Positions 58,482-61,400 of a stretch of DNA of 64,000 nucleotides are shown in pieces. The position numbers and the translations under genes are program-made. The notes under the pieces were generated by a model. That model ran no database searches. It saw only the letters and a program-made list of their open reading frames with translations, and had not been told where the DNA came from. Position 1 is the stretch's first letter. The number at the start of each line of letters is the position of its first letter. Origin of the DNA: Candidatus Marinacidobacterium sp. (lineage in GTDB: Bacteria > Acidobacteriota > Vicinamibacteria > Marinacidobacterales > Marinacidobacteraceae); contig OZ244852.1 in NCBI GenBank assembly GCA_965220965.1, positions 824,621 to 888,620 on the forward strand, written 5' to 3'.

Positions 58482-61400
58482 CTATCCGCGGGATAGCGCC
58501 TGTTCGATCTCATTCAGGGCGAATTTGCGGTTCAGGTGTGGGTGCAGCCACTGATTCCGATAACTCCTGAGGCACCCATAGCAGCTCGCGTCGCAACCGC
58601 AGTCGCCGCGCACACGCGTTCGCGCAAGTTCCAGCACGAGGCGGAAACTCTCCCTGTTGGTGAGTTGGCCTACGAGTCCAGCGCCGCCAGGAACATCGTC
58701 GTAGAGAACCACTCCGTCCACGGTAAGGGTGACGTTCAGGTCGCGTTCGGGGACGGCAACGGCATCGGCAGCTCCATGGAGAAGCGCGTACCCGAGCGAA
58801 TACCGAACCCACTTCTGGCGCCCCGGCAGCTCAACCTTGACCACATCTGTGACAAGCTCGTGACCCAACGCGTAGCTGGAGAAGGTACCTCGGCAGGGAC
58901 GCCCGTCCGCTGTCTTGTGGCCGCGCGCCCGTGGGTTCGCGTCGTGTAGTCCGCAGTCCTCGCACAGCAAGAAGTTGCGCTGACCCTGACCCTCACAGAG
59001 AACCACTAACCTGCCTGGCAGAGCCTCTGCGACATCGAGCCCGAAGAGTCTCTTCTTGTGGGCCTTGCGCGCCCCAGCGGAATACCCCTGGAAGAACGGC
59101 TTCGTCGTATACTGACGGCGCGGTCGGCGCACCGGAGGGCGTGGGTCGGTCTGGAGGTCGGTAGTAAAGCCCCAACGTGGGACGAGATAGCGACCTGAGT
59201 ACTGTGCACCTTCCTCCTTCTCCGCGTCATTTGAGGATTCGAAGGCGCCCTCCTCGTTCCAGAAGTACCAGCGGACGGTGGGAGCCTGCCCCTCGACCCT
59301 CCGAATACCCACAGACTTCCACTCCAGCTTGTCGGCGACTACGCTGCTCCCAGGCGCGTATTCGGCAAGCGCGAGTGAGAGATCACGGTCGAGCTCTATG
59401 TTCTGGCCATTCTTGGTCGCTCCCGTTTGCAGCTCGACCACATCCACCGGAAATCCGTATTTTGGGATGATGGCGTGTCGCGCCAGAAACGAAATCGCCA
59501 TCTCCCGCTCCATCGCGTTCAATCGGTCCTCCAACCGATAGCGCCTCCTTCGTTCAGTGCGAGTGGCATTCAGATCCGCCAGGATCCGTTCGATCTGAAG
59601 ATACTCGGCGCACCGATCGGCGACGGCGCGGGCGAGTCTGCTCTCGCTCCCGGTAAGCCGTCGAACCCATTTCTGTCCATCGACCCCGACGCTCTCCCGC
59701 AGCGTCGCCGGAACGACGTCGTGCAGGACTCGCGGCAGCGCGTCGTCGTTGCGGCAGAACTCGCCGAAAGCATCACACACATCGGGGTGTCGCCAGTCCT
59801 CGCCAATGAAATCCTTGACTCGTCCGGCGCGAATACGATGCGCCGGCTGCCGGAAGAAGTGTGATAGGGCGACCGCGGTCATGTGCCTTTGGACGATCTG
59901 AGGATTTGTCAGGCGAAGGATCGGCGGTCGGACCCGACCAGAGATCATCTCCTGCTGATGTCGGAAGTAGTGGAGGTCATGGGAGTTGCGGCGACAGTAG
60001 GTGACGGCAAGACCTGCCTTCCCCCGCCGGCCGGCGCGGCCGACTCGTTGTGTGTAGTTGAACGGTTCGGGTGGCACGTTACGAAGAAACGTCAGGCGAA
60101 GATCACCGAGGTCGACACCGACTTCGAACGTAGTGGACGAACTGAGCAGGTGCACCCGATCCCGCTGAAAATCGCGCTGGACGCTGCGCGCTTCCTCCGG
60201 AGTCAACTGCGCTGTGTGTTCGGCCGTTCTGAAGTCTGCTGGAAGGTCCGATGCGAGGTAGAGGCGTCGGTAGTGGTTGTCCTCGTGCGTGCTCTTCACC
60301 CGACCGAGTCGTCCCGTGCAGCGAGGACGGGGACAGAGGCCGCGAAGGGCTATGGCAGTGACCCGGTCGCACCTACGACACCGCCAGAGGTCGGATGACG
60401 AGGCCGGACGGACACGGAGCCACTCGGCGCGCAGCCGGAAGCCGTTAGTCCTGCGATCGATGGACAGGAGAGCGGCGCTGGACGAGCGTCGCGACTGAGC
60501 GACGAGGTGATCCCAGACACGAACCATCACATCTTGGGCGGCGAACACGGGGTCCGTCTCACCATTGACTAGTTTGGGAAGATAGTCGCGAACAAGGCCG
60601 CCCTGCGGTGAGCCCCACTGGCGCAGATGACGGCGTCCGTGCGGACGATCTTGGCTGAAGGCGAGTTGGGGCCTCTCTGGCTTTATGACGGACCACGTGG
60701 GCAGATCCGGATCGGTGGAGGGCAGCTCCACCGCGTCGTTTCTGAGGAACTCGGCGAGCAGCAATTGCAGGAGCGCACTGGCCTCCGCCGGGTTCAACCG
60801 CCAGGGAGTCTCCTGGAACACTGGCGGGAGATTCATGCCCGGAGGCAGTGCGACATGCCAGCGGCAGAGGCCGACCCCCGCCAGCGACAGCCGCGTGTCA
60901 TCGGTCACGGCTTCACGAAGCACTGCCGCATAGGCATCTCTGTAGCGCTGTGCTCCAGTCTCCGACGGTGCGTGAACCCCCAGCTCCGACCGGACTCTCT
61001 CGAGTCTCTGCGCGAGATCGGCCACGGACAACTCGCAGTGACTCGCGCCACGCGGTGAAGCCTTCTGTCGAAGGGCGCGGAGCAACAGGTTGCGCGTGAG
61101 CAGAGTCCGGTAGGAGTCCTCCGCATACCAAGCAAAGAAAGCTGCGTCCTGTCGGCTATCCGCGAAGGCAAGGATCTTCTTCTCATCCTCGGGAAGAAAC
61201 CGGTGCATGGCCGTAGCCAGAACGGCGTTGGGGGCGTCGGCGCCGTGGACGATCGCCTGAACGGGATCGCCAACGCCACCTCGGCTGTAGCTACAGACCG
61301 CGCACCTCTTCAGTTGATCCCGGTACTCCGGTTGCTGTCGGTTCTCACTCCGTTCAACACGGATCGCCGCTCCACAGCGGCACGTCAGCTCGTCGCTCAG

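Follow-up and report, generated by a model that had tools for sequence, protein, structure and literature searches.

A DruE-type helicase with a predicted double zinc-binding domain, paired with a ribosomal protein-tailed partner, in Candidatus Marinacidobacterium sp.

The stretch of DNA analyzed here (the window) comprises 64,000 nucleotides (nt) of contig OZ244852.1 from Candidatus Marinacidobacterium sp. and carries a two-gene cassette on the minus strand, in which a partner gene lies upstream of a gene for a large superfamily 2 (SF2) helicase. The contig has a GC content of approximately 72% and is bacterium-like. The helicase gene (58482..62738) encodes a DruE-like protein of the YprA family, 1,418 amino acids long, which matches database protein P0001 exactly. 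Within the longer open reading frame (ORF; 58482..63116), the ATG at position 62738 is the real start, given that the product is identical to the 1,418-residue P0001 and that the N termini of homologues align there. Residue numbers below count from this ATG, and adding 126 gives the numbering from the upstream-most GTG. The RecA1 lobe lies at 61815..62453 (residues 96 to 308; Pfam DEAD, 1.6e-17) and contains the GTASGKT and DEAH motifs, and the RecA2 lobe lies at 60021..60239 (residues 834 to 906; Pfam Helicase_C, 2.6e-10), where it aligns to residues 1075-1167 of the solved DruE structure 9tu7. A C-terminal MZB/DUF1998 domain follows at 58569..58793 (Pfam MZB, 4.8e-10, above the cut-off), so that both features of YprA/MrfA-family SF2 helicases are present, namely, the core of a DEAD/DEAH RecA1 lobe with Helicase_C and a C-terminal four-cysteine MZB/DUF1998 domain.

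An earlier note, made from the sequence of the window alone, had placed a Cys-rich peptide in this helicase at positions 59300-60100. The peptides it quoted are all present in the minus-strand ORF, with ALCRECGQHYYVGRR at 61515-61559, LLCRICGALSDELTCRCGAAIRVERSE at 61344-61424, and RCAVCSYS at 61284-61307. The sequence was thus real and the coordinates were not, the true location being 61284-61559 on the minus strand. The translation of 59300-60100 corresponds to residues 1006-1273 of the ORF, numbered from the upstream-most GTG, and covers helicase motif VI and the helical/OB region that follows; it contains four isolated cysteines and no CxxC pair. The Cys-rich stretch spans residues 396 to 482, between the Pfam DEAD and Helicase_C domains, and is placed after RecA1 and ahead of the strand that opens RecA2. 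Its cysteine pattern exceeds chance: the helicase contains 6 CxxC motifs compared to 0.66 expected (20,000 shuffles, p = 5e-5), and 9 cysteines fall inside 87 residues (shuffle p = 0.006).

The search for relatives of the helicase scored 6,570 proteins at E <= 1e-10, and, among the matches listed, the top homologues were approximately 1,400 amino acids long, with full-length coverage and about 50% identity. Conservation was read from a close set of 61 homologues at ~50% identity and from a distant set of 68 full-length relatives (27-52% identity) from Actinomycetota, Bacillota, Chloroflexota, Bacteroidota, Acidobacteriota, and archaea. Eight cysteines (C396, C399, C441, C444, C453, C455, C479, and C482) are each found in 61/61 close homologues. 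The conservation check proposed with the earlier note was thus passed by eight of the nine quoted cysteines, and the series of CxxC pairs that it described (C396/C399, C441/C444, and C479/C482) is both present and conserved. The ninth, C417 (in EACRDPS), occurs solely in this protein among the close homologues and would not be a ligand candidate. The two outer pairs, C396-R-E-C399 at 61542..61553 and C479-A-V-C482 at 61293..61304, are also retained in 68/68 distant relatives. The site nested between them (C441-x2-C444-x8-C453-x-C455; 61374..61418) is nearly as widespread, with the CxxC pair in 65/68 and C453 in 62/68. Its fourth ligand in the distant relatives is Cys or His, 1 to 3 residues past the third, and the expression CxxC-x(5-30)-C-x(1-3)-[CH] matched in 54/67 of them; such Cys/His alternation would be typical of zinc knuckles. 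The three relatives in which the inner site is missing are the largest (1947-2100 amino acids) and have small unrelated upstream genes. Because of this conservation, two nested Cys4 sites are the simplest ligand map, and the eight cysteines most likely form an outer zinc site from C396/C399 and C479/C482 and an inner one from C441/C444 and C453/C455.

An AlphaFold2 (AF2) model of residues 345-545 is all-beta with the knuckles at strand ends, and its predicted local distance difference test score is 84-89 over residues ~405-465, the inner site included. Conserved non-cysteine residues also lie between the ligands, in the form of GQHYYVG and a glycine after each CxxC. Pfam scans of three isolated Cys regions gave only subthreshold zinc-ribbon-like matches (E 0.07-5). 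Two further positions in and near the domain drew our attention. Residue 464 (61347-61349) is Cys in 59/61 close homologues (consensus KCESH) and Ser here, and it looks like a clade-specific extra that would not be a core ligand. Four consecutive histidines (AFLHHHHGQD, residues 367-370; 61629-61640) lie slightly upstream of the first knuckle, where homologues have AFLVHRxGxD; this run may be chance. In E. coli DruE, the region matching this run holds an extra Cys cluster.

The identity of the helicase was determined from family models, structures, and domain content. PADLOC scored it highest as DruE1 (7.1e-144), DruE3 (4.2e-135), and DruE2 (1.5e-124), with DpdJ as the next family at 2.9e-20; this 2023 version has no ARMADA models, and a DruE best match taken alone is also compatible with ARMADA. 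Lhr, RecQ, Hrq1, DrmA, and DpdJ were rejected as the family since all score far under DruE. A phmmer search of PDB sequences returned 9tu7 (2,108 amino acids; 2.7e-65) and 9wae (1,970 amino acids; 1.2e-49), followed by MrfA. A diverse profile of the Cys-rich domain (A3; 47 sequences, residues 350-540) matched 9tu7 at residues 425-658 (E 1.5e-15) and 9wae at residues 606-850 (E 2.7e-14), and these two DruE structures were its only significant matches among PDB sequences. Under this profile, the first knuckle is in register with CsgCG of 9tu7 and CeaCG of 9wae, the last knuckle with CvCCG and CpkCG, respectively, and the FxDSRQ strand that follows is in register as well. That strand, KKILAFADSRQDAAFF (61134..61181), comes directly after the domain and aligns with FtDsRq of 9tu7 and FSDSRQDAA of 9wae; its F, D, and R are invariant in the 47 diverse sequences, and it is probably the start of RecA2. 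A profile of the close family (A2) gave only chance-level matches among PDB sequences (a ferredoxin-type complex I subunit at 0.035; 9wae at 0.082).

Bell et al. (2025) described inserted domains that are common to the ARMADA/BRIGADE/TALON/Druantia branch of the YprA family and predicted that RecA2 begins with a beta-barrel zinc module throughout this lineage. They also described a RecA1-RecA2 insertion that contains a BrxA-like helical domain along with a MarR-like one, which has a zinc motif at its end. The beta-domain with at least two CxxC motifs that characterizes the Druantia/ARMADA branch is present here at residues ~350-500 (61239..61691). We conclude from the profile match and the AF2 model that the Cys-rich segment corresponds to the double zinc-binding beta-domain (dZBD, or ZBM_L) of DruE-type helicases, a group within the YprA/MrfA family that falls in its Druantia/ARMADA branch. 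The suggestion that the ribbons separate this protein from plain Lhr, RecQ, or MrfA enzymes therefore holds, given that the inserted domains are shared features of the Druantia branch and that MrfA is too short to contain them. The zinc domain itself is already known, having been predicted in 2025 and resolved by cryo-electron microscopy (cryo-EM) in 2026 for III-A DruE; what we describe is a further example of it together with a clade-specific nested ribbon.

The function of the domain can be approached through the solved DruE proteins. In the cryo-EM preprint of Himpich et al., the dZBD of E. coli DruE contains two zinc motifs, one of which contacts DNA; together with a duplex-binding domain (DBD) it forms an entry channel for the duplex, and a loop within it serves as a "lock." In the cryo-EM preprint of Hu et al., ZBM_L likewise contains a pair of zinc motifs, and it acts together with the Cap domain to grip and over-twist duplex DNA. 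A role in nucleic acid recognition, one of the two functions raised in the earlier note, is supported by homology to a DruE domain that was seen on duplex DNA in both studies. By analogy, we propose that the zinc ions are structural and would keep a small, arginine-rich beta-module rigid. The outer ribbon (C396/C399 with C479/C482) would tie both ends of the insertion together, and the inner knuckle pair (C441/C444 with C453/C455) would stiffen a protruding hairpin. Based on homology with E. coli DruE, the zinc module and the neighboring Cap/duplex-binding domain could form a platform that seats the duplex in front of the fork, and the RecA core would meanwhile pull the 3'-5' tracking strand. 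The helicase would then serve as motor in a Druantia type III-like cassette that is compact, has two genes, and lacks a nuclease; the partner may be a shortened, Ig-repeat, DruH-like protein. We put the probability at roughly 80% that a small basic beta-module owes its rigidity to structural zinc sites and, with the adjacent inserted domain, seats duplex DNA for a 3'-5' DruE-type motor.

Several observations weigh against this proposal. The identity of this domain to the solved III-A proteins is low, and pairwise full-length phmmer left the zinc region of 9tu7 unaligned. The inner site is matched by no aligned Cys in the two solved DruE sequences. In distant relatives, an acidic loop separates the outer knuckles, at the position of the "lock" (9tu7 residues 505-523) of E. 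coli DruE; this loop is shortened in the clade of ~1400-residue proteins that includes our helicase. Zinc binding and the pairing of the ligands are deduced from the cysteine pattern and from homology. Finally, PADLOC scans detected no DruH in the partner here, in the partner of a second locus (L002), or in nine upstream partners of distant relatives.

We considered other roles for the conserved cysteines in light of these points. Instead of contacting DNA, the domain might offer a surface for docking or oligomerization, to which the DruH-like partner, another helicase protomer, or some host factor would bind. Such a role would fit with the inner nested site being specific to the III-B-like branch, whose partner is also different and shortened, and with the finding that III-A systems need both DruE dimerization and DruH binding for defense. 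However, DruH touches the Stalk domain and not the zinc domain in the published DruE-DruH complex, and DruE dimerizes via the PD/DD helical subdomain, the Cap domain, and the core fold without involvement of the zinc domain (Hu et al.). Both DNA-bound structures also put the zinc domain on the duplex. We consider docking improbable, and the protein-partner recognition envisaged in the earlier note is unsupported given where DruH binds. A purely architectural role, in which the cysteines staple a large insertion and the domain has no ligand-binding function, overlaps with our own explanation and is suggested by the outer site, which coincides exactly with both ends of the insertion, and by E. 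coli DruE, where just one dZBD zinc motif of the two touches DNA. The contact of the domain with duplex DNA in two independent structures, along with the conserved non-cysteine residues between the ligands, makes this a minority view that we would still keep in mind.

A different metal center was also weighed, given that eight closely spaced cysteines in a DNA helicase could bind an iron-sulfur cluster of the kind known from XPD/DinG, AddB, or Dna2 and could make the domain a redox or DNA damage sensor. The weak match of the close-family profile to the 2x[4Fe-4S] ferredoxin-type complex I subunit points in the same direction, but that match is at chance level and is gone with the diverse profile. 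The spacing follows CxxC...CxxC knuckles instead of CxxCxxCxxxCP, His is frequent as the fourth inner ligand, and the homologous DruE motifs are called zinc binding in the cryo-EM papers. We consider an iron-sulfur cluster highly improbable. Structural zinc sites in a duplex-seating module thus remain our preferred explanation.

The helicase contains additional conserved cysteine clusters outside the dZBD equivalent. A third zinc cluster is predicted just before the main part of RecA2 (C787-x2-C790-x11-C802-x4-C807; 60318..60380), where it ends an insertion of ~280 residues (residues 545 to 830); it is conserved in 68/68 distant relatives and aligns to residues ~1117-1140 of 9wae but not to 9tu7. 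A cluster in the OB region (C1248, C1259-x2-C1262, and C1282; 58893..58997) corresponds in the alignment to 9tu7's second OBZ motif, with C1259, C1262, and C1282 in 68/68 distant relatives and C1248 conserved in close homologues only (61/61). Neither of these two clusters appeared in the earlier note. The C-terminal DCGCD cluster, which it had assigned to DUF1998, does belong to the Pfam MZB/DUF1998 domain: the sequence DCGCDASCYGC (58572-58601) provides the motif C1380-x-C1382-x3-C1386-x2-C1389, and each of its four cysteines is found in 68/68 distant relatives. With two sites in the inserted domain and three elsewhere, a protomer is therefore predicted to hold about five zinc ions, which makes the ligand map testable.

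The partner gene begins outside the window. A longer locus (L001), which shares 14 kb of identical sequence with the window and continues beyond it, contains the whole gene (L001:7402-9951), which encodes 849 amino acids and reaches 65337 in window numbering; its 3' part (residues ~447-849) occupies 62788..64000. The 371-residue ORF at 62788..63903 is this 3' part running off the window and was rejected as a gene of its own. Only 49 nt separate the end of the partner gene from the start of the helicase gene. A word-indexed homologue search with the partner gave three proteins only, probably because it was swamped by the low-complexity N terminus; an exhaustive search gave a family of 637 representatives at E <= 1e-10 with a core at residues ~235-700. 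Chains of phmmer matches (1e-13 to 1e-40) join this family to actinobacterial DruH-like partners, and hhalign of the two gave 91.5% probability (E 8.7e-7). In the AF2 model, residues 260-700 form confident tandem Ig-like beta-domains and residues 1-255 a low-confidence coil, and Foldseek matched the core to the Ig arrays of DSCAM, LILRB, ICAM-5, and titin. The published structure search with DruH also gave Ig domains of adhesion molecules, for example, those of ICAM and NCAM. Taken together, the partner appears to be a remotely DruH-like, shortened Ig-repeat protein. Its N-terminal ~255 residues (L001:7402-8166) are rich in Pro, Ser, Asp, Glu, and Ala and are predicted to be disordered. Published DruH differs from it at both ends, with an N-terminal helical domain that is reported as required for defense and a helical C-terminal domain.

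In place of the latter, the partner here ends in a uS5 homology domain (residues 715-847, the last ~135 residues; 62797..63195, minus strand). The tail matches the N-terminal Pfam S5 domain (4.8e-9), S5_C (7e-11), and TIGR01021 (2e-24), with both Pfam S5 domains in the correct order, and phmmer aligned it to ribosomal S5 chains (2e-22; S5 residues 12-146 of 167). These matches indicate that the tail is a genuine homologue of ribosomal protein uS5. An S5-tailed partner is also found upstream of the closest helicase homologues (P0010 and P0015). Among 60 members of the partner family, the tails were L13e-like in 33, uS5 in 4, NusA-type KH in 2, ribosomal S6 in 1 (6.6e-25), and DUF4389 in 1; several of the L13e-like tails score 28-33 bits against a cut-off of 24.9. 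The C-terminal tail of this family thus appears to be interchangeable, and all types except DUF4389 would be ribosomal or RNA-binding modules. We found no report of S5 or L13e domains in phage defense in the literature searched; the word "ribosomal" is absent from Bell et al., and such partner tails are unmentioned in the Druantia papers checked for them. The partner tail is the most novel item of the locus and is more surprising than the zinc domain. A separate observation concerns a Vicinamibacteraceae locus (L010:785-5008), where a 1,408-residue ORF upstream of a 52%-identical helicase matches PADLOC MzaA (1.1e-58) and joins the partner family by phmmer; it could be a fusion or a mixed system.

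The two-gene pair recurs in other genomes, and a large upstream ORF accompanies the helicase in nearly all distant relatives. The flanks of the cassette contain, among other genes with no relation to Druantia, those for a small helix-turn-helix protein, a TonB-dependent receptor, and a DUF5117/DUF4953 protein, and the extended locus of 24 kb has no tRNA gene and no integrase domain among its called genes. The GC content of the cassette is 0.63-0.68 compared to 0.70-0.74 in the flanks (window ~58400-64000 and beyond; L001 7000-14300), which suggests horizontal acquisition. ARMADA, TALON, BRIGADE, and Druantia types I and II are excluded because of the gene context. The marker genes of ARMADA types I and II are absent within 10 kb on either side in L001 and also in the loci L002, L003, L085, and L086. 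The L001 locus has none of the neighbors expected of TALON (NERD nuclease, TPR-CSD, and TBP genes) or of BRIGADE (7-deazaguanine biosynthesis genes, in haloarchaea). The DruA-D or DruM/F/G genes that characterize Druantia types I and II are absent beside the helicase; the partner is its sole cassette-specific neighbor. Druantia type III-A was rejected because the helicase does not have the two C-terminal PLD-like domains: a Pfam scan gave no PLD match, and the protein ends 29 residues past the last MZB cysteine. It fits the PLD-less branch, the two-gene form of which is known as subtype III-B (Bell et al.) or as "type III-like" in the literature. We conclude that the cassette is probably a compact Druantia type III-like pair. 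An anti-phage defense role is predicted from indirect signs, namely, the GC content of the cassette relative to its flanks, toxin-antitoxin genes near one homologous cassette, and homology to validated systems. Elsewhere in the window, a second low-GC patch (0.62; 50001-52000) lies between DUF4175 and DUF4440 genes and contains short ORFs that have no Pfam match in the source annotation.

In summary, our analysis identifies the helicase as a DruE-type motor with a predicted role in defense and extends the zinc domain pattern to the compact PLD-less branch, for which the nearest solved structures in PDB searches were those of the two large DruE proteins of III-A type. The nested inner site, with its CxxC pair in most distant relatives and no counterpart in the solved pair, marks how the compact branch may differ at the DNA entry platform, and the ribosomal protein tails of the partners could hint at a new logic of sensing or targeting. 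It is conceivable, though we rate the chance as low, that the cassette represents an undescribed Druantia subtype that combines a compact DruE with a nested ribbon and an Ig-repeat partner with a swappable ribosomal protein or RNA-binding tail. If so, DNA surveillance by the helicase could be coupled to sensing or targeting of the ribosome or RNA, and not to the exonuclease/single-stranded DNA-binding role that has been reported for III-A DruH.

Comparison with characterized helicases places these features in context. The Cys-rich region of PriA binds two zinc ions and is likewise a CxxC-rich zinc module within an SF2 helicase core; its profile similarity to the domain described here is weak (E 0.11-0.18), and PriA belongs to another family, making this an analogy and not a matter of membership. 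MrfA/YprA (6znp) shares the superfamily core and the C-terminal MZB Cys4 domain but, at 751 amino acids, has no insertion between the RecA lobes and no zinc site other than that of MZB. E. coli DruE (type III-A, 9tu7 series) is closer, given that its zinc domain also lies between RecA1 and the FxDSRQ strand with an aligned outer CxxC...CxxC ribbon and that the downstream order of RecA2, an OB-region zinc motif, and the MZB Cys4 is common to both proteins. It differs in carrying two C-terminal PLD-like domains on a 2,108-residue chain, whereas the helicase here ends after MZB. Its second dZBD zinc site lies upstream of the first knuckle (C-x4-C...CxC), whereas ours is nested between the knuckles. 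The E. coli protein also has the full acidic "lock" loop and a first OB-region zinc motif (CrkC...CshC) that is absent here, and its system pairs it with DruH, which PADLOC did not match in our partner. The 9wae DruE-type helicase aligns with ours in the outer ribbon as well as in the third cluster (CxxC...C..C), which precedes RecA2, although it has no inner nested site in the aligned region and its chain is about 550 residues longer. A parallel in layout is actinobacterial type III Druantia, the III-B subtype in Bell et al., with two-gene DruH-DruE systems in which DruE is PLD-less and the partners are remotely homologous to ours. This group includes the experimentally validated MSMEG_1253/1254 of M. 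smegmatis, with a DruH of 1,132 amino acids and a DruE of 1,667 amino acids that is PLD-less by annotation, being annotated only with DEAD, Helicase_C, and DUF1998. The actinobacterial proteins are larger (DruE, ~1530-1680 amino acids; DruH, ~1100-1340 amino acids) than the 1,418- and 849-residue proteins here, and our partner is distinguished by its disordered N terminus and uS5 tail. Even so, the actinobacterial relatives from Nocardia, Rhodococcoides, Gordonia, and Micromonospora, at 29-34% identity, have kept both the outer ribbon and the inner CxxC...C..C/H site.

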